DNA from: Escherichia phage EP335
Direction: 5' to 3' (one strand)
Sequence record: MG748548
DNA: 64,000 nt
Each line of letters opens with the position of its first letter. The stretch's first letter is position 1. Below the pieces are notes generated by a model. The model searched no databases. It was not told where the DNA came from and saw nothing but the letters and a program-made list of their open reading frames with translations. Shown here piece after piece: positions 32,522 through 48,824 of the stretch. Both the position numbers and the translations under genes were made by a program.

Positions 32522-33113
32522 TTACTCCCCTAAAAGTTTACGAACTTCTTTCTTGAATGTTTCATACTCTTCAGGGTATTCAAACCCACACTCTAGCATT
32601 GCGTAGTGAACAACCTTAAGCAAGTCTTGAACCTTGTTCTTATCTTTGTGACGATAAGCATACTTAATCATGTTGCATTGCTGGAAATTGAGCTGAGGGT
32701 TATTTGCATAGAACATACTTAATCATGTTGCATTGCTGGAAATTGAGCTGAGGGTTATTTGCATAGAACTCAATAGGTTGAATTTTCTTAGAGTCAGGGT
32801 CGTAGTGAGCACCACCAACCATAACATCTAGTGCTGGACTTCTTTTGCTGGTTTGTTCAGTTGTATTCTTAAAACTGACCACAGGAACAGAAGAGTAAAC
32901 TATATACTCTTCCCCTACTGGTGGTTTTACTCTTAGTCCACGCATGGCATATTCAATCTTTATGTCAGCGGAACCTGAAGCGACCTCTTCAATAGATTTT
33001 CGATAGCTGTCAATAACTGCTCTTAGCATAGAGATTGTTTTGGTCATATCTTTTACTTTCTCATTCAGTACAACAATCTCTGATTCTTTGAAATCGAACA
33101 AATTCATTTCCAC
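32522..33113 (-). pseudogene. DUF3310-like phage protein split into two ORFs by a frameshifting 55-bp tandem duplication
   Basis: ORFs 32700..33113 and 32522..32716 both encode FYANNPQLNFQQCNMIKY across the two repeat copies; joined reading gives ~178 aa with motif AHY...IQPIEF...NMIKY.YR...DLLK..HY. Confidence 0.5.
32659..32768. repeat. perfect tandem direct repeat, 2 x 55 bp
   Basis: 32659-32713 and 32714-32768 identical (catacttaatcatgttgcattgctggaaattgagctgagggttatttgcatagaa). Confidence 0.85.
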
Positions 33114-43170: not shown

Positions 43171-43416
43171 TCATTTCACAAGCTCCACTTCTTCAATGCT
43201 GTACCCTTCATAATCCCACTCATCTCCCCAATAACTCTCCTTACCTTCGAGAAGTGATTCAATAACTCGCTCACGGTGTTTATCTGGAATAGGAAGACTT
43301 TCTAAATCCTTGCGTTCAGGGGGTGATAGAAAAACTTTGACAGCATAGGAGTAATCAGAACTCCCTTCCATCTCTCCTGCAAGTTTTGTTAAGACGAAAC
43401 ATTTAGATGCAGTCAT
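43171..43416 (-). CDS. hypothetical protein
   Basis: ORF track 81 aa. Confidence 0.4.
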   Translation of the reverse strand: MTASKCFVLTKLAGEMEGSSDYSYAVKVFLSPPERKDLESLPIPDKHRERVIESLLEGKESYWGDEWDYEGYSIEEVELVK

Positions 43417-43634
43417 TTCACAACCTTAAACTTAAATGTTGTTGGGTGGTAGTAGTGTAACCTGTTTATTGTATGCTTAGTCTCATGATACAGGATACAA
43501 GAGTGGCACATTGAATGGTGCAAACAGGTTACTGGATTACGTTTGAAATTGGCAATAAGCTTCCGCTTGTTACAGAAGCTACATGTTTTGTGTAAGTCCA
43601 TTAACTCTCCAGAGTTTTCCTTAGAGCTGACCAA
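43413..43634 (-). CDS. small Cys/His-rich protein
   Basis: ORF track 73 aa (CSFC...CLHHSMCHSC). Confidence 0.35.
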   Translation of the reverse strand: MVSSKENSGELMDLHKTCSFCNKRKLIANFKRNPVTCLHHSMCHSCILYHETKHTINRLHYYHPTTFKFKVVK

Positions 43635-44257
43635 GAAATTGGGTAGAGTTTAGCCATCTCTTCATCTAATGACTGAGCAAACAGTCGAACTTCATACTGA
43701 GCATGGGATGATAGTCGTTGACGACACAATTCAAACCAGCCATACAAACTACCAGTCCATACCCACTCAGTAATCATCCCCTGAGGAAGAACAAAGCGAG
43801 CTTGCTCTGGTGCAACAAATTCAATTAATTTGTCATAGGCTGCCAGTGAAGCCTCATACGCATTATTGATTAGCATTAATGCTTCGGCTCGTTCTCCGTT
43901 GACAAGCTGTGTCCCTGAACCTGCATGGAGGTCCGAAGGTCTCGCAAAAATCTCTTTAGGGATGAAGACTTCAACTGCTCCATCTTTATACCGCCGGGAC
44001 ATTTCGTTCCACGAGAATCCAACCTGATGTTTTTGTAGTTGACGAGCTATTGCAATTGGAGCTTTACATCGAAAAGATACTTGAGGGTGTCTGAACGGAG
44101 TACAGTGTTTCTCTCTGGCAAGAAAGTTGATTAATCGAGTATCACGATCATTCAAATCACCCTCTCGCACAACACCGAAAGAAACTCTTGCAGCATTAAC
44201 AACTGTTTTATCACTACCCATAGCTTCAATCAATGTTGCCTTCAATTGTTCATTCAT
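43601..44257 (-). CDS. thyX: flavin-dependent thymidylate synthase ThyX-like
   Basis: ThyX-type signature region ARQLQKHQVGFSWNEMSRRY (SxxxxSxRY present; canonical RHR replaced by KHQ) and C-terminal ARFVLPQG...GWFELCRQRL..HAQYEVR. Confidence 0.65.
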   Translation of the reverse strand: MNEQLKATLIEAMGSDKTVVNAARVSFGVVREGDLNDRDTRLINFLAREKHCTPFRHPQVSFRCKAPIAIARQLQKHQVGFSWNEMSRRYKDGAVEVFIPKEIFARPSDLHAGSGTQLVNGERAEALMLINNAYEASLAAYDKLIEFVAPEQARFVLPQGMITEWVWTGSLYGWFELCRQRLSSHAQYEVRLFAQSLDEEMAKLYPISWSALRKTLES

Positions 44258-44732
44258 ACTTCAACTTCTCCTTGTTATAAGCAATCTCTGCTTCCTCTGG
44301 AGTGTGGAAAGTTCCCAAATGTTTAGTCTTTCCGCCAACTCCGATGATAGCTCTGAATTTTGTACCACTCGCCGTCTCTCTGATATAGACACCCATTGGG
44401 AGCTTTCCAGCTTTTCCGGCTCTGTTATATTGTTTCCTGTTATGACAGTTTGTAGATGGGTCAACATCTCTTAGGTTTTTAAGAGAGTCATCCAGTTTAA
44501 TCTGGTTGATATGATCAATCTCAAACTCAGGCATCTTTCCATAAGAGAAAAACCAAGCTAAACGACAAGCTCTGTAAGATTTTCCTTCGTAATAAATATA
44601 CCTGTAACCTAGTGTAGAGATACACCCAGCAATATTCCCAGCCACCCGTCTACCTTTGGTATTCTTCCACCGAAAGATTCCAGTTTCAGGGTCATAAGAC
44701 AGGTCTTCTTTTATCTTGTCAGTTAATATCAA
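44250..44732 (-). CDS. HNH homing endonuclease with AP2-type DNA-binding domain
   Basis: HNH motif EIDHINQIKLDDSLKNLR...NCHN and AP2-like GVYIRETASGTKFRAIIGVGGKTKHLGTFHTPEEAEIAY. Confidence 0.7.
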   Translation of the reverse strand: MILTDKIKEDLSYDPETGIFRWKNTKGRRVAGNIAGCISTLGYRYIYYEGKSYRACRLAWFFSYGKMPEFEIDHINQIKLDDSLKNLRDVDPSTNCHNRKQYNRAGKAGKLPMGVYIRETASGTKFRAIIGVGGKTKHLGTFHTPEEAEIAYNKEKLKYE

Positions 44733-44994
44733 AAGCTGTTACCAAGAAAGATTTCAGGTTTGCTTCAGTCTGCATACCAGATAAGCTATAATGTGCACCG
44801 CTGTTACGGTTAGGTACGATGAAAGCAGGAATACTTCGTACACCGTATTCGATAGCTCGATCACGACCATTGCCTTCGAGGATGTTAACCTCTTCAACTT
44901 CTAGGTTAAGCTCTTCAGCTAATTTGTTGAGGGTAGGGGCCATTGCTTTGCAAGGAGCACACTGATTACTATAAAACTTAATAACTTTATTCAT
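44719..44994 (-). CDS. thioredoxin-like protein
   Basis: CxxC active site in FYSNQCAPCKAMAPTLNKLAEE. Confidence 0.6.
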   Translation of the reverse strand: MNKVIKFYSNQCAPCKAMAPTLNKLAEELNLEVEEVNILEGNGRDRAIEYGVRSIPAFIVPNRNSGAHYSLSGMQTEANLKSFLVTAFDIN

Positions 44995-45167
44995 TCACTC
45001 TTCCCATTTACAAACAGCTCAAGATGTCGCTTGGTAGTGGGGACTACGATATAGTCCTTGTAGCCATGAGACTTAGCAAGCTCTTCTGCTATCTTTTTGG
45101 TAGCACCTAATGCTACTACACATCGGCACACGATGATTGTGTGCGCTTTGTATTCATCTTTGTTCAT
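44991..45167 (-). CDS. unannotated small ORF, 58 aa
   Basis: translated by eye (MNKDEYKAHTIIVCRCVVALGATKK...); stop TGA overlaps ATG of thioredoxin gene (ATGA). Confidence 0.35.
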   Translation of the reverse strand: MNKDEYKAHTIIVCRCVVALGATKKIAEELAKSHGYKDYIVVPTTKRHLELFVNGKSE

Positions 45168-45174
45168 AAAAACC

Positions 45175-45360
45175 TTAAGCAGTGATCAGGTGGAGGATAA
45201 ACGGGATGACTACAGAGATGATAACCCAAGCAACAGATGCGATTTGAATTTCAGCTTTCTTGTCAGGAGTTTCTTCAATAAGTTTCTTGCTACCATAATA
45301 AACACCTCCGCCAATGAGAAGTGCCCAAATACTCCAAATGATTGCTGATAACATATTCAA
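45175..45360 (-). CDS. small membrane protein with two TM segments (holin-like candidate)
   Basis: 61 aa; hydrophobic segments AIIWSIWALLIGGGVYY and VAWVIISVVIPFILHLI. Confidence 0.45.
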   Translation of the reverse strand: MNMLSAIIWSIWALLIGGGVYYGSKKLIEETPDKKAEIQIASVAWVIISVVIPFILHLITA

Positions 45361-45412
45361 TTCCTTATAAATAAGTTCGCCCTACCTCGGATTAGGAGAC
45401 AGGGCGGAGGTT

Positions 45413-46000
45413 TTAGTATGAGACGTCACTAGAGTGTGACATGTTACTTTTAACGAAGTAGCAATACTTGCCTAACCCTTCGTTGATTTCTTGGAGCATG
45501 CTCTGGTCAACTGGATACTCGCTCAAACATCCATCGAACTCATCCATTTTGTCAATCATGCACATTAAAGACATGCACATATCAGAGAGCATACCATCCA
45601 TATCTAGGTCTGCATTTCCTTCAGAGAACCAAGAGTGTGATAGGTAGTTAGAAGCAGTTGCATCCACCTTAATACAGTGGAAACGCATACGTTCAGCTAT
45701 CCGATCACCTGTCTCACGAGCATAATCTTCAAGCTCATCAAACATTCCATGAACACCCTGAAATCCTGCACCAGATACGTTCCAGTGATAATTCTTAGCT
45801 TTGATATGCAAGAGTTCTAAATTAGCTTGAATACCGCATAGAATGTGTTCTAGGCTGTTTCCACTAATCATCCCTTGCATACGCTCTAAACGGGAGATAG
45901 AAGAGTCTGTTTCACGTAATACATCACGGAAAGAAGTCTCTTTTGTTAGAGTTGGTAGGTCGAAAACATTGTGATTAGGCATTAGGATTCTCTCCATCAA
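45413..46000 (-). CDS. dps: Dps/ferritin-like protein
   Basis: Dps signature LHIKAKNYHWNVSGAGFQGVHGMFDELEDYARETGDRIAERM. Confidence 0.7.
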   Translation of the reverse strand: MMERILMPNHNVFDLPTLTKETSFRDVLRETDSSISRLERMQGMISGNSLEHILCGIQANLELLHIKAKNYHWNVSGAGFQGVHGMFDELEDYARETGDRIAERMRFHCIKVDATASNYLSHSWFSEGNADLDMDGMLSDMCMSLMCMIDKMDEFDGCLSEYPVDQSMLQEINEGLGKYCYFVKSNMSHSSDVSY

Positions 46001-46304
46001 GTTCTACTGAGTTCGCAACATTGCGTGTAATGTTATCCATTACCTGTTGGGTGATAACGATGCAGTTCTGTGGGTCAACCGACTTAGAACGTCCCATCTC
46101 AGGGTCATACACTTTAACGCGCTTTGCTGTAGAACCAGTTACCTGTAACACCTTGAGAAGATAACCCTGATTCCCGATAGACCATGCAACAACATCACGA
46201 TTCTTGATGAATCGACCAAGCATATCACGATGATAGAACTGCTGCATAACCTTTGATTTATTAATCTCTTCGGCTGGCGGAGCCACTTTACTCAAATCTA
46301 ACAT
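45975..46304 (-). CDS. hypothetical protein
   Basis: ORF track 109 aa; overlaps Dps start. Confidence 0.35.
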   Translation of the reverse strand: MLDLSKVAPPAEEINKSKVMQQFYHRDMLGRFIKNRDVVAWSIGNQGYLLKVLQVTGSTAKRVKVYDPEMGRSKSVDPQNCIVITQQVMDNITRNVANSVELDGENPNA

Positions 46305-46335
46305 TTCACTCTCTCCTGTTCAATACAATATTCTT

Positions 46336-46350
46336 ATACTGTATATACAT
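46336..46350 (-). promoter_or_regulatory. promoter-like motif AATGTATATACAG (minus orientation)
   Basis: reverse complement of 46336-46350; about 35-45 nt upstream of minus-strand gene start 46304. Confidence 0.3.
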
Positions 46351-46376
46351 TTGAGAGTGATCATATCTACTACCAA

Positions 46377-46583
46377 CTAGTAGAAAACTGCTTTGGATAT
46401 AAAAGAGCCAGTATTAGGGTCCTCATGCCATCGATGCATAGTGACTTTTGAGATAACCTTGCAAGCTTTCAAGTTTTTCTTGGTGAGACGAGCTTCTTCT
46501 CTGGTGTTGAATAACTTGATGGTATCTTTACCCACACGCTCTTCTACTCTCCACACTATTCGTATAGCCCACATCTTTTTCAT
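46377..46583 (-). CDS. small protein, paralog family A (member 3)
   Basis: 68 aa; shares MKK.W.V.I...TRE.AR..KKNLK...Y pattern with two upstream neighbours. Confidence 0.45.
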   Translation of the reverse strand: MKKMWAIRIVWRVEERVGKDTIKLFNTREEARLTKKNLKACKVISKVTMHRWHEDPNTGSFISKAVFY

Positions 46584-46798
46584 TAGTAATGTACCTTTCC
46601 GCTGATATAAATACGGCCTGAGGTATACTCATAGCCCTTGAGGATTTTGACAGAGGAAACACTATTCATCCCACTGAGAGATTTCTTAAGATTACGTGAA
46701 CCCTCTCGTGTTTTCTGATAGGTCATGGTTGTATTACCATTATCCCACTCTATCTTAACTATCCAAATTCTTTTCATAAGACCTGCTCTCTTTACCAT
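46583..46798 (-). CDS. small protein, paralog family A (member 2)
   Basis: 71 aa (internal start MKRIW possible); ATGA overlap with neighbour. Confidence 0.45.
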   Translation of the reverse strand: MVKRAGLMKRIWIVKIEWDNGNTTMTYQKTREGSRNLKKSLSGMNSVSSVKILKGYEYTSGRIYISGKVHY

Positions 46799-46995
46799 TA
46801 GTAGTACACCTTGCTATTGGCGAAAAAAGCACCTTCGCTATTCACAATAGCTTTTCCTAATGTAACCTTGTTAAGTCTAAAAGTAGACTTGTATTGATTT
46901 TTGACCCTACGTGCGTGATCTCGAGTCTTAACAAAATCTACAGCTACCAAGTCTCCAGTCATGTTATCATGTACACGAACAATCCACTTTTTCAT
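46798..46995 (-). CDS. small protein, paralog family A (member 1)
   Basis: 65 aa MKKWIVRV...; ATGA overlap with neighbour. Confidence 0.45.
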   Translation of the reverse strand: MKKWIVRVHDNMTGDLVAVDFVKTRDHARRVKNQYKSTFRLNKVTLGKAIVNSEGAFFANSKVYY

Positions 46996-47529
46996 TTACA
47001 CACCCTTAGAAGCAACAACACCTTCGCTACCATTGTAGCGACCTTTAACTGCATAGGAATGCTCACCAGCATGTGAATGCTCAAACATCACCATCTGACC
47101 GACACGCATACCAGCACGAACCCGTAAGCTGTGGTGCTTGGTTACGTTATGGAACTCAAATGTCAGCTTGCTATTGTTAAACCCAGCGTCTGCCCAACCA
47201 GCGTGCAAGTGGTTCAAGCCACAACGAGCCATTGAAGATCGTAGAACAAACAAGCTGGAGATGTTATCTGGGAGGTTGAACTCTTCCATTGAGTGAGCCA
47301 AGAAGAATTGTCCCGGAGTGATGATAATGCCATCTTCAGGGATTTTTACTTCTTTCCACTTGAGGTTTTCTTTCGCATCAATGTCAACAATCCCATCAGC
47401 CTGTTCTTCAATAAGGATAGTATCACCAACACGGATATCCACACTAGCAGCGTTAACATACTTATGCTCCGCATCCAGAAAACCGTTGTCGATAACGTCG
47501 TGTAATTCCATGCTTCCTAATAAACTCAT
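46996..47529 (-). CDS. dcd: dCTP deaminase / dUTPase-superfamily protein
   Basis: motif SSMARCGLNHLHAGWADAGFNNSKLTFEFHN...GMRVGQMVMF. Confidence 0.7.
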   Translation of the reverse strand: MSLLGSMELHDVIDNGFLDAEHKYVNAASVDIRVGDTILIEEQADGIVDIDAKENLKWKEVKIPEDGIIITPGQFFLAHSMEEFNLPDNISSLFVLRSSMARCGLNHLHAGWADAGFNNSKLTFEFHNVTKHHSLRVRAGMRVGQMVMFEHSHAGEHSYAVKGRYNGSEGVVASKGV

Positions 47530-47543
47530 TCTTATTCCTTATG

Positions 47544-48824
47544 TTAATCTGCGATACTGTCGCTTTCGTCCATCCAGACTGGACTGTTAACCTGTCCTAG
47601 ACGACGAGCTGATGTTTCGTTAATAGAGTTAACCCCTGCTGTGCGAGGGTTTGTGTACCACGGTCGAGCTATGGTGCCCTCTCGAATCACTTGGTTCGTT
47701 TCGACATGCCATCTGTTTGATACCGTGTTGGCTCCGAAGTTACCACCCGCCCCACCACTAACAGGTACAGCTTGAGCTGGTTGGTTTACTCGGTTAGTTC
47801 CTGCCCCAAAGGCTGCTGCAAATTCAGACACACGTGCATCAAATGAAGAACGAACACGCTGAGTAGGTGATATATCATTTCGTGTATCTACTGCACGAGG
47901 CATAGCCCAAGTATCATCTGTTGAGATATCAGGGGTAGGCTCTTGCTCTAGAGGTTGAAGATTAGCTGTCCATTGACTATTCAGTATACGATAGAAATCT
48001 GCACCATAACCACTTCGGATAACATCCTCTCTGACACCAAAGAAGCGACTGATATCCCCACCGATTCGGGCTAGTTTGTCATTGTATGCAGGTATGATTA
48101 TTCCACCCTCTGTCACTAAATCAGAGACACGACTTGTTGTAAGTGGTGAAGTGATCCAACAATAATAATCAGTAATGTGACCATCGTATCCGAAGAATGC
48201 AATCTCTGCATCAGGCCATTTCTTGTGGACATATGCCACTTCACGGTTAGAACAAACAGGGATTGCACCTGTTTCAGTCATTGCATAGAAGCCGTCAGAA
48301 GAGAACCAAAGTGAATCTAGTGCTAAGAATCCACGACACACGCTCGGGAAAGTAGCAGCCAGCGCCCCAAGTGAGGTAGGTTCATTGAACATTAACTGAA
48401 TCTTTGCACCCTGATAATTAATCTCTAGGATATCTACAAAATTCAAAGAAGACCCAGGGGCATATTGATTATTACTTCGTCCAATATCCTGCTCAATGAG
48501 AAGAGATCTTGTTTCAACACCATGAGCCTCTGCCCACTCTTTGAAATCTTCAAGGAACAAGCGAGCCTTAGCTCGCCACATCGACCGATCAATTACAGAC
48601 TGTCTCGGCAATCCACCCTCTGTAGTGATGAGAAAGATATCAATGTCGTGAGGTTCACGCGTCTGAAAGATTGCATCCCTAACAGCACCACCTGCAATGA
48701 TAGGGTACACACCATCAGGGATTAAACGGTTTGCAATCAACTCGTTAATTAACGTAAGACCAGACACAAGCTGCGGACTATCATCAATCCGTCGACGAAT
48801 TAGTGCATTAGGGATATTATACAT
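47544..48824 (-). CDS. Pol-beta superfamily nucleotidyltransferase with CCA-adding-enzyme-like head motif and G/N/A-rich C-terminal region
   Basis: IIAGGAVRDAIFQTREPHDIDIF (GGxVRD ... DxD); C-terminal ~120 aa low complexity. Confidence 0.55.
   Translation of the reverse strand: MYNIPNALIRRRIDDSPQLVSGLTLINELIANRLIPDGVYPIIAGGAVRDAIFQTREPHDIDIFLITTEGGLPRQSVIDRSMWRAKARLFLEDFKEWAEAHGVETRSLLIEQDIGRSNNQYAPGSSLNFVDILEINYQGAKIQLMFNEPTSLGALAATFPSVCRGFLALDSLWFSSDGFYAMTETGAIPVCSNREVAYVHKKWPDAEIAFFGYDGHITDYYCWITSPLTTSRVSDLVTEGGIIIPAYNDKLARIGGDISRFFGVREDVIRSGYGADFYRILNSQWTANLQPLEQEPTPDISTDDTWAMPRAVDTRNDISPTQRVRSSFDARVSEFAAAFGAGTNRVNQPAQAVPVSGGAGGNFGANTVSNRWHVETNQVIREGTIARPWYTNPRTAGVNSINETSARRLGQVNSPVWMDESDSIAD

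Follow-up and report, generated by a model that had tools for sequence, protein, structure and literature searches.

The window analysed here is a 64,000-nucleotide (nt) stretch of Escherichia phage EP335 (sequence record MG748548), and all positions refer to this window as a whole. We studied a set of genes in the phage's leftward replication and nucleotide-metabolism gene string (G+C content 0.41–0.43): thyX, for a flavin-dependent thymidylate synthase, a gene for an HNH-AP2 endonuclease, a thioredoxin-like gene (trx) and a dCTP deaminase gene (dcd). We hold with considerable confidence that this is the thymidine-nucleotide supply region of a Kuravirus, that its ThyX, from a clade with Lys-His-Gln (KHQ) where the classical enzyme has Arg-His-Arg (RHR), makes deoxythymidine monophosphate (dTMP), and that a free-standing homing endonuclease gene lies beside thyX. 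KHQ is a clade-wide, apparently compensated variant of ThyX rather than a mark of new specificity in EP335. The main features, all on the minus strand, are:

43601..44257, minus strand: thyX, flavin-dependent thymidylate synthase of the viral K-H-Q...S-R-R-Y clade, 218 aa (Pfam Thy1 7.7e-44; TIGR02170; residue map)
44030..44257, minus strand: 5' part of thyX (~codons 1–75), an endonuclease-linked allele, a co-conversion or recoded tract and candidate target region (identity by HNH presence)
44250..44732, minus strand: free-standing HNH-AP2 homing endonuclease gene, 160 aa, TTG start (HNH_3 6.8e-07; phrog_99 7.5e-55)
44719..44994, minus strand: thioredoxin-like protein, 91 aa, CAPC at residues 12–15 (Pfam Thioredoxin PF00085 2.2e-13)
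46996..47529, minus strand: dCTP deaminase, possibly a bifunctional dCTP deaminase-dUTPase, 177 aa (Pfam DCD 6.3e-35; TIGR02274)

A first-pass annotation of the window had given these gene positions together with overlaps of 8 nt between thyX and the HNH gene (44250–44257) and of 14 nt between the HNH gene and trx (44719–44732); the open reading frames (ORFs) bear all of this out. It had also described thyX, trx and dcd as a cluster, interrupted by the endonuclease. The three do form a co-directional cluster, but we do not call this a tight operon for deoxythymidine triphosphate (dTTP), because eight other ORFs separate trx from dcd (among them two small ORFs, a gene for a Dps/ferritin-like protein, one ORF of 109 aa and three paralogues in tandem). 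"Interrupted" overstated the case: the HNH gene sits between trx and thyX, and no coding sequence is broken.

A nucleotide search with the 3.9-kb region matched 97 phage records, almost all of them Escherichia/Shigella Kuravirus (Gordonclarkvirinae, phiEco32-like), and the best full-length matches were ~80–84% identical. The window shares its gene order with phiEco32, Ptacy1532, ShigP1, YW01 and SkaterBoy Bas90, a curated BASEL phage. This common order and the 97 matching records place the window phage in Kuravirus; judged by its sequence, it is a new, moderately diverged phiEco32-like coliphage. Close relatives already have the dTTP-precursor cluster with a free-standing HNH-AP2 endonuclease, and it is annotated in them.

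A viral clade of ThyX with a KHQ motif

The window ThyX matched the Pfam family Thy1 (PF02511) at 150.2 bits against a cut-off of 24.8, covering profile positions 1–190 of 191, and was above the cut-off of the NCBIfam thyX equivalog TIGR02170 (126.5 versus 87.9 bits). The closest solved ThyX was that of Thermus thermophilus (6j61, E = 6.4e-30); the match to the Thermotoga maritima enzyme had an E-value of 4.7e-24. In what follows R78, R80, S88, G89 and the like are numbered as in T. maritima ThyX, and K76, Q78, R88 and the like as in the window protein.

In pairwise alignments, K76-H77-Q78 fall opposite R78-H79-R80 of T. maritima ThyX and opposite the RHR of T. thermophilus ThyX, and the S..NE.S.RY part of the signature reads SWNEMSRRY, just as the first-pass annotation had noticed. 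Eleven mapped active-site residues are kept (S30, H53, R74, Q75, N85, E86, S88, R90, Y91, R147 and R174). At the mapped positions only R78K, R80Q and G89R differ, to which is added a single extra residue ahead of the serine, giving KHQX8S. The kept residues include several with published roles: dUMP (deoxyuridine monophosphate) is activated by R174, with S88, R90 and Y91 assisting methylene transfer (PMC8316439), and H53 stacks on folate or flavin (PMC11940539). R174, S88, R90, Y91 and H53 correspond to R181, S87, R89, Y90 and H51 of the window protein.

Covariation among nine ThyX sequences, aligned across an identity gradient, suggests how the change at position 80 is tolerated. All five RHR sequences (T. 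maritima, T. thermophilus, Thermus phage G20c, mycobacteriophage CharlieB and Rhodobacter phage RcExplorer) have a small residue at position 89, in SGRY or SARY. All four that are without Arg80 and read K[HY]x (the window, Rheinheimera phage Barba25A, Bacillus phage Taylor and Streptomyces phage TomSawyer) have Arg there, in SRRY. The pattern extends to a larger set of motif-matched relatives, 207 of 215 having Arg at position 89 and six more having it at position 87. In PBCV-1 ThyX, the side chain of residue 89 can fill the dUMP phosphate pocket (PMC3498832). Within one active-site loop the arginine appears to have shifted from position 80 to 89, and we infer a compensating role for Arg88 of the window protein. 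Arg at position 89 would adjoin the dUMP phosphate pocket and replace Arg80, making a rearranged phosphate clamp, and Lys76 would retain a positive charge toward the reduced flavin.

KHQ is no peculiarity of the EP335 protein. Of the 120 closest homologues, which extend down to 52% identity, 115 have KHQ and the remaining five differ elsewhere in the motif. The first-pass annotation had allowed that its idea of altered specificity would suffer if KHQ were a common active variant of ThyX; these counts establish the "common" part. RHR was found in none of the motif-matched sequences among the best 150 50%-identity cluster representatives (39–55% identical), which read K/R-H/S-Q/K/T/V instead. 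By tblastn, 257 records of phages with many different hosts contain a ThyX relative at E<=1e-45; the variant motif was confirmed directly in one of these (Barba25A), and also in two more distant phages. The clade takes in Grimontviridae (7-11-like), Chaseviridae (phiEcoM-GJ1), T4-like Schizotequatrovirus, a T7-like Aeromonas phage, and Roseobacter and Xanthomonas phages. Across these unrelated families KHQ-type ThyX has no constant partner besides replication and nucleotide-metabolism genes. When two narrow, clade-specific peptide patterns were run against 185,579 species genomes of bacteria and archaea, only five KHQ-clade hits came up, on very small contigs or contigs of metagenome-assembled genomes. 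The KHQ clade looks virus-restricted.

The motif is also an intein site. In some distant KHQ-type homologues (P0122, P0134, P0210 and P0228), inteins lie exactly between KHQxGF and SWNE, as in ...KHQSGF / CLTGDTQ...VVHN / SWNERSMRY, where slashes mark the junctions.

An outlying relative was noted in Rheinheimera phage Barba5S, whose positions 1885–2796 hold an extremely divergent ThyX-like gene of 303 aa (motif THRSFSRNAQSSRA; TIGR02170 38 bits, below the cut-off). In two of the otherwise near-identical Barba phages, this 303-aa gene takes the place of the KHK-type thyX at the same locus. We considered the allelic replacement in Barba5S as a sign of functional equivalence, and found it uninformative, the replacing gene being an even more divergent ThyX-like one.

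ThyX product and restriction resistance

Most likely the window ThyX is an ordinary thymidylate synthase (dUMP to dTMP) with a rearranged phosphate clamp. From the predicted enzymatic activities a short pathway can be proposed. The phage dCTP deaminase would convert dCTP to dUTP, or straight to dUMP if it is bifunctional, and otherwise host Dut would complete the step. ThyX would then methylate dUMP to dTMP with flavin adenine dinucleotide, methylene-tetrahydrofolate and a reductant, and host kinases would turn dTMP into dTTP. The extra dTTP would supply a 42–43% G+C genome replicating in a host of higher G+C (~51%).

Several points weigh against this assignment. Read literally, the published ThyX signature, RHRX7S (Myllykallio 2002, quoted in PMC2826268), is missed by the window protein at R78K, at R80Q and through the one-residue insertion. 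Arg-78 and Arg-80 hydrogen-bond dUMP and are described as conserved (PMC3498832), and R78 points to N1/C2=O of the reduced flavin (PMC11940539); the first-pass remark that the altered residues contact substrate agrees with both reports. The compensating role of Arg88 is argued from covariation and one literature remark on structure. With the clade nearly absent from cells, the argument that an enzyme is the sole thymidylate synthase of a living cell is unavailable, and in the literature we found no characterised or assayed member of the KHQ/SRRY clade. Finally, Gordonclarkvirinae are strikingly resistant to restriction-modification systems, by a mechanism that is not known (PMC11990801), and the window shows no avoidance of the sites recognised by the systems that Humolli et al. 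tested (EcoRV 32, EcoKI 6 and EcoP1 102 sites, the EcoKI and EcoP1 counts being near expectation). Because these sites are not avoided, the restriction puzzle of Gordonclarkvirinae stands.

The departure from the signature recurs clade-wide, and RHRX7S is therefore too narrow for the viral KHQ clade; by homology the window protein is a member of the ThyX family that does not fit the classical signature. Neither the signature nor the described conservation of Arg78 and Arg80 holds for a large viral clade of ThyX, and motif filters built on RHRX7S would throw out phage ThyX sequences. The natural Arg 80-to-89 variants are on offer to enzymologists for probing the roles of these residues.

The first-pass annotation thought altered specificity conceivable. 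In its strongest form, the virus-only K-H-Q/S-R-R-Y ThyX would be functionally distinct, making a non-canonical C5-substituted deoxyuridylate or using another redox partner, and would feed DNA modification in Gordonclarkvirinae. The product could be, for example, 5-hydroxymethyl-dUMP, made when water captures an exocyclic methylene intermediate, of which there is one in the ThyX mechanism (PMC8989533); it would enter DNA and explain the resistance. If true, this would matter for understanding how phages in therapeutic use withstand restriction. Such a change is suggested by the alteration of both R78 and R80, which contact dUMP and reduced flavin in canonical enzymes (PMC3498832, PMC11940539), by the virus-restricted distribution of the clade, by the undepleted EcoRV, EcoKI and EcoP1 sites, and by the resistance itself, for which Humolli et al. 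suspect covalent modification and speculate that DNA modification involves the dCTP deaminase and the nucleotidyltransferase next to it (PMC11990801). Yet the mapped residues are kept, including R174, S88, R90, Y91 and H53, and the charge looks relocated (R80 to R89) rather than lost. The same type of ThyX is also found in T4-like and T7-like phages, Chaseviridae and others that have no conserved kinase or transferase partner. Host kinases would have to accept the product, since the 297-aa "dNMP kinase" of Bas90 had no tblastn match anywhere in the 64-kb window. Many T-containing restriction sites are strongly avoided (observed versus expected: CCWGG 2 versus ~87, PstI 0 versus 18, SacI 0 versus 18, KpnI 0 versus 7, BamHI 0 versus 9, ScaI 3 versus 20), which argues that restriction enzymes can act on the window DNA. 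The literature yielded no phage ThyX homologue with another product, and for Kuravirus DNA no report of nucleoside composition, modified bases or restriction digests. Altered specificity is disfavoured because the Arg at 89 apparently compensates and the other mapped residues are conserved, and we rate both the distinct function and the modified product as very unlikely.

A milder possibility keeps dTMP as the product and changes the handling of cofactor or reductant: K76, Q78 and R88 would alter flavin or NADPH (reduced nicotinamide adenine dinucleotide phosphate) binding, O2 sensitivity or kinetics, and the enzyme might be coupled to thioredoxin instead of NADPH. R78, which stabilises the anionic reduced flavin, is Lys in the window, and a thiol-disulfide oxidoreductase gene lies beside or near thyX in Kuravirus, 7-11-like phages and Barba phages. 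We took up the linkage of thioredoxin or glutaredoxin genes to thyX as a hint of an alternative reductant and rejected it, as it is absent in five lineages (Chaseviridae, Xanthomonas DES1, Vibrio V05, Roseobacter CRP-207 and Aeromonas PS) and in the Barba phages is accounted for by adjacent ribonucleotide reductase genes. The Arg-to-Lys change is moreover conservative, and a thioredoxin-dependent ThyX is not known; this version, too, seems unlikely.

That thyX might be a decaying or inactive remnant is suggested by the deviation at two of the three RHR positions, but is scarcely credible for a full-length protein above the equivalog cut-off. The ratio of nonsynonymous to synonymous substitution rates (dN/dS) of thyX is 0.057–0.066 (versus phiEco32, ShigP1, Ptacy1532 and Bas90), compared in the same genomes with 0.036–0.040 for dcd, 0.17–0.25 for trx and 0.04–0.06 for the HNH gene. 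Across Kuravirus the ThyX protein keeps 91–96% identity despite ~82% nucleotide identity, the variant motif itself is kept down to ~40% identity, and the inteins of some homologues sit in the motif, a placement typical of functionally critical sites. The reading of the window ThyX as an ordinary thymidylate synthase is the one we carry forward.

Two further observations concern restriction. Site avoidance across the window is very uneven, which has a bearing on the resistance of Gordonclarkvirinae. StuI, NcoI, SalI and ScaI sites are at <=0.15 of expectation in the window and GATC is at 0.53, while EcoRV (32 sites, 2.3x), HpaI (2.1x) and PvuII (1.95x) are over-represented. A proposed tie between Gamaleyavirus restriction resistance and KHQ-type ThyX was dropped: Gamaleyavirus is N4-like, and the ThyX-carrying phiEcoM-GJ1 belongs to Chaseviridae.

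The endonuclease slot and the 5' end of thyX

The HNH-AP2 identity proposed in the first-pass annotation was upheld by profile comparisons. The protein matched PF13392 (HNH_3) at 29.3 bits against a cut-off of 24.8; AP2 in Pfam was not reached by the single sequence. A profile of 42 HNH sequences matched I-HmuI (1u3e; 1.4e-07, residues 38–111) and, over residues 104–156, plant AP2/ERF domains (WRI1 2.2e-08, TEM1 5e-04, ERF096 3e-03); ERF1 AP2 was matched as well, and the range over the four AP2 domains was 2.2e-08 to 0.07. Precomputed annotation gives PF00847 together with PF13392 in about a quarter of full-length homologues. Across the 42 homologues D73, H74, N86, N95 and N98 are invariant. 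An AlphaFold2 model of the protein had a mean confidence (pLDDT) of 87.3, and the top Foldseek matches of the model were AP2 domains, at non-significant E-values. At E<=1e-10 the family was found in 1,537 phage records.

No in-frame start codon other than the TTG at 44732, and no ATG, precedes residue 66. We take the TTG as the only plausible start, since there is no in-frame ATG before that residue, and with this start the 14-nt overlap with trx holds. Close relatives start the gene at a GTG one codon downstream of the window TTG. The ribosome-binding site of thyX (AAGGAG) falls within the 3' end of the HNH gene.

Mobile insertion between trx and thyX had been suggested from the overlaps, and comparison with relatives agrees. 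In phiEco32 and Bas90 the trx–thyX spacer is 15 nt and holds no HNH gene. Five Kuravirus records (ShigP1, Ptacy1532, pEC-N1203-2Af.1, TH06 and PGN6866) have 95–97% identical HNH genes at the same site as the window. At least four HNH lineages use the slot directly 5' of thyX, the window type and three divergent types: one of ~70% identity in Bas87, EK010, E20-1 and ECBP2; a ~41% type in Bas86, where its place at the slot was confirmed, with SU7 carrying the same type; and a fourth in ES17 and YW01. At the adjoining dcd–nucleotidyltransferase–replication locus, homing-endonuclease insertions are the sole breaks of synteny (Humolli et al., PMC11990801). The trx–thyX junction of Gordonclarkvirinae is a clear natural hotspot for homing endonucleases.

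The endonuclease slot is linked to the sequence of thyX itself. By sliding identity, the first ~230–300 nt of the window thyX are 88–94% identical to HNH carriers versus 72–85% to HNH-less relatives, and beyond this tract both groups are equidistant from the window. Six genomes (ShigP1, Ptacy1532, ES17, YW01, phiEco32 and Bas90) are all 94–97% identical over the 3' two-thirds of thyX, and over the 5' 210 nt their grouping follows endonuclease lineage without exception, with 97–100% identity within and 71–78% between lineages. Between ShigP1 and phiEco32, 43 of 48 synonymous sites differ in codons 2–70 (proportion of synonymous differences, pS, 0.90; of nonsynonymous differences, pN, 0.088), compared with 6 of 81 in codons 101–218 (pS 0.07). 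The ThyX protein is nearly unchanged despite the recoded tract, which in the window's lineage stops at the conserved KHQ-coding sequence. Two endonuclease lineages were examined, the ShigP1/Ptacy1532 type and the ES17/YW01 type, and each goes with a recoded 5' end of thyX. On the other side of the slot, the last five trx codons differ between HNH-carrying and HNH-less genomes.

This pattern points to homing aimed at thyX. The HNH-AP2 protein would nick or cut the 5' third of thyX in phages without the HNH gene, and recombinational repair from a carrier would copy the HNH gene together with ~200–230 bp of adjacent thyX. Synonymous recoding of the copied segment would then shield the carrier from cleavage. 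Both the cleavage and its predicted site in the thyX 5' region belong to this model. On the opposing side, the diverged 5' tract might have come by recombination with a distant donor, with no ongoing homing. The HNH gene might accordingly be mobile no longer, whether domesticated or merely resident, with the 5' divergence of thyX a trace of old recombination. Purifying selection on the HNH gene (dN/dS 0.04–0.06) also suits a domesticated function, and the gene provides the ribosome-binding site of thyX. We nonetheless find this improbable, given that the gene is present sporadically among closely related syntenic genomes, that four divergent lineages share one slot, that the two of them examined each go with a recoded thyX 5' allele of their own, the remainder of the gene being 94–97% identical across carriers and non-carriers, and that the catalytic residues are intact.

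In the ES17/YW01 lineage a TTG stands at the usual thyX ATG, and the depositors annotated thyX 12 codons shorter, from the internal Met of MGSD. In these phages the insertion of the endonuclease gene may have altered how translation of thyX begins.

Neighbouring genes and known systems

The window Dcd exceeded the cut-off of TIGR02274 (dCTP_deam; 109 versus 92.8 bits) and matched PF22769 at 121 bits, and its Ser/Arg, Asp and Glu motifs align with those of solved enzymes. The closest solved sequences were 4xjc (6.8e-15) and 2qxx (3.3e-14), far ahead of 1xs1 (9e-07). The structures 2qxx/4a6a (M. tuberculosis) and 4xjc (B. halodurans) are of bifunctional dCTP deaminase-dUTPases, and 1xs1 is of the monofunctional E. 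coli Dcd. The phage Dcd might make dUMP directly.

The thioredoxin-like protein matched PF00085 at 50.5 bits against 23.5. It is below the NCBIfam TrxA equivalog cut-offs, and we therefore call it a thioredoxin-family protein rather than a TrxA orthologue. Its probable role is that of a general disulfide reductant, serving for instance the host ribonucleotide reductase, and it is only loosely tied to dTTP supply. The first 50 kb of the Bas90 genome carry no annotated ribonucleotide reductase.

The remaining features of the region are:

43413..43634, minus strand: Cys/His-rich small ORF overlapping the thyX 3' end (PHROG match, phrog_15951)
44991..45360, minus strand: two small ORFs, of 58 aa (phrog_19504) and of 61 aa, membrane-like (phrog_9296) (PHROG matches)
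45413..46000, minus strand: Dps/ferritin-like protein, start codon uncertain (Pfam Ferritin 4.4e-08; phrog_3636 3.3e-53 over residues 44–189)
45975..46995, minus strand: 109-aa ORF (phrog_10984), then three tandem paralogues (phrog_4939) at 46377–46583, 46583–46798 and 46798–46995 (PHROG matches)
47544..48824, minus strand: nucleotidyltransferase-like gene, 426 aa, directly upstream of dcd (phrog_12715 6.3e-161)

Downstream of thyX, the likely real start of the phrog_15951 ORF is an ATG at 43601, with a 1-nt overlap with the thyX stop codon. Relatives carry differing small genes in this place, one of them annotated "anti-restriction nuclease" (ShigP1, YW01 and Bas90). We rejected that identity for the window ORF, which matches only phrog_15951.

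On the other side of trx, the 58-aa ORF (44991–45167, minus strand) was found only in the window and Ptacy1532 and is absent from phiEco32, ShigP1 and Bas90, making a second small indel polymorphism beside the endonuclease slot. The phiEco32 homologue of the Dps/ferritin-like gene is annotated as a Dps-family DNA-binding protein. The three phrog_4939 paralogues, of 68, 71 and 65 aa, have stop and start codons that abut or overlap by 1 nt, and Ptacy1532 has four copies; positions 46601–46720 are only ~53–55% identical to relatives. The nucleotidyltransferase-like protein, flagged by Humolli et al. as a possible DNA-modification enzyme (PMC11990801), has a GGAVRD...DIDIF motif, a match to the Pfam PolyA_pol head at only E = 0.096, and no sequence match in the PDB. 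No tRNA genes were found in the 64-kb window.

Elsewhere in the window, at 32522–33113 (minus strand), a DUF3310-like gene is split by a direct duplication of ~54 nt. The ORF at 32700–33113 ends ...FYANNPQLNFQQCNMIKY and the next, at 32522–32716, begins MFYANNPQLNFQQCNMIKY.... This split locus occupies the place of the Bas90 297-aa "dNMP kinase".

The genes can be set beside several known systems. The T. maritima TM0449 (PDB 1kq4/1o26) and T. thermophilus (6j61) ThyX enzymes have the same full-length domain and share the 11 active-site residues with the window protein; unlike them, the window protein reads KHQX8S with G89R and comes from an almost virus-only clade. The bifunctional dCTP deaminase-dUTPases (2qxx/4a6a and 4xjc) align with the window Dcd in the motifs of the trimeric dUTPase-like fold and in the catalytic Glu motif, at a similarity of only ~E 1e-14. 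Among phages, phiEco32 (phi32_64, phi32_65 and phi32_72) and Bas90 (Bas90_0061, 0062 and 0069) have thyX, trx and dcd in the same order and orientation as the window. Compared with phiEco32 and other Kuravirus, the window ThyX is 91–96% and Dcd 93–94% identical as protein, at a nucleotide identity of ~82–85%; the window has the HNH gene and the extra 58-aa ORF, and phiEco32 and Bas90 are without both.

The endonuclease shares its HNH (ββα-Me) core and the D-H...N...N residues with I-HmuI, the intron-encoded HNH nicking enzyme of Bacillus phage SPO1 (PDB 1u3e). In contrast to I-HmuI, it is free-standing in an intergenic spacer and has a different DNA-binding module, the AP2/ERF-like C-terminal domain. 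Free-standing phage homing endonucleases such as T4 Seg and Mob bring about co-conversion of flanking markers. The window enzyme differs from T4 Seg/Mob (GIY-YIG) in being of the HNH_3-AP2 type, and its homing is predicted from sequence comparison; like them, it is intergenic beside a conserved nucleotide-metabolism gene, is sporadic among relatives and has a flanking segment that is co-inherited with it.

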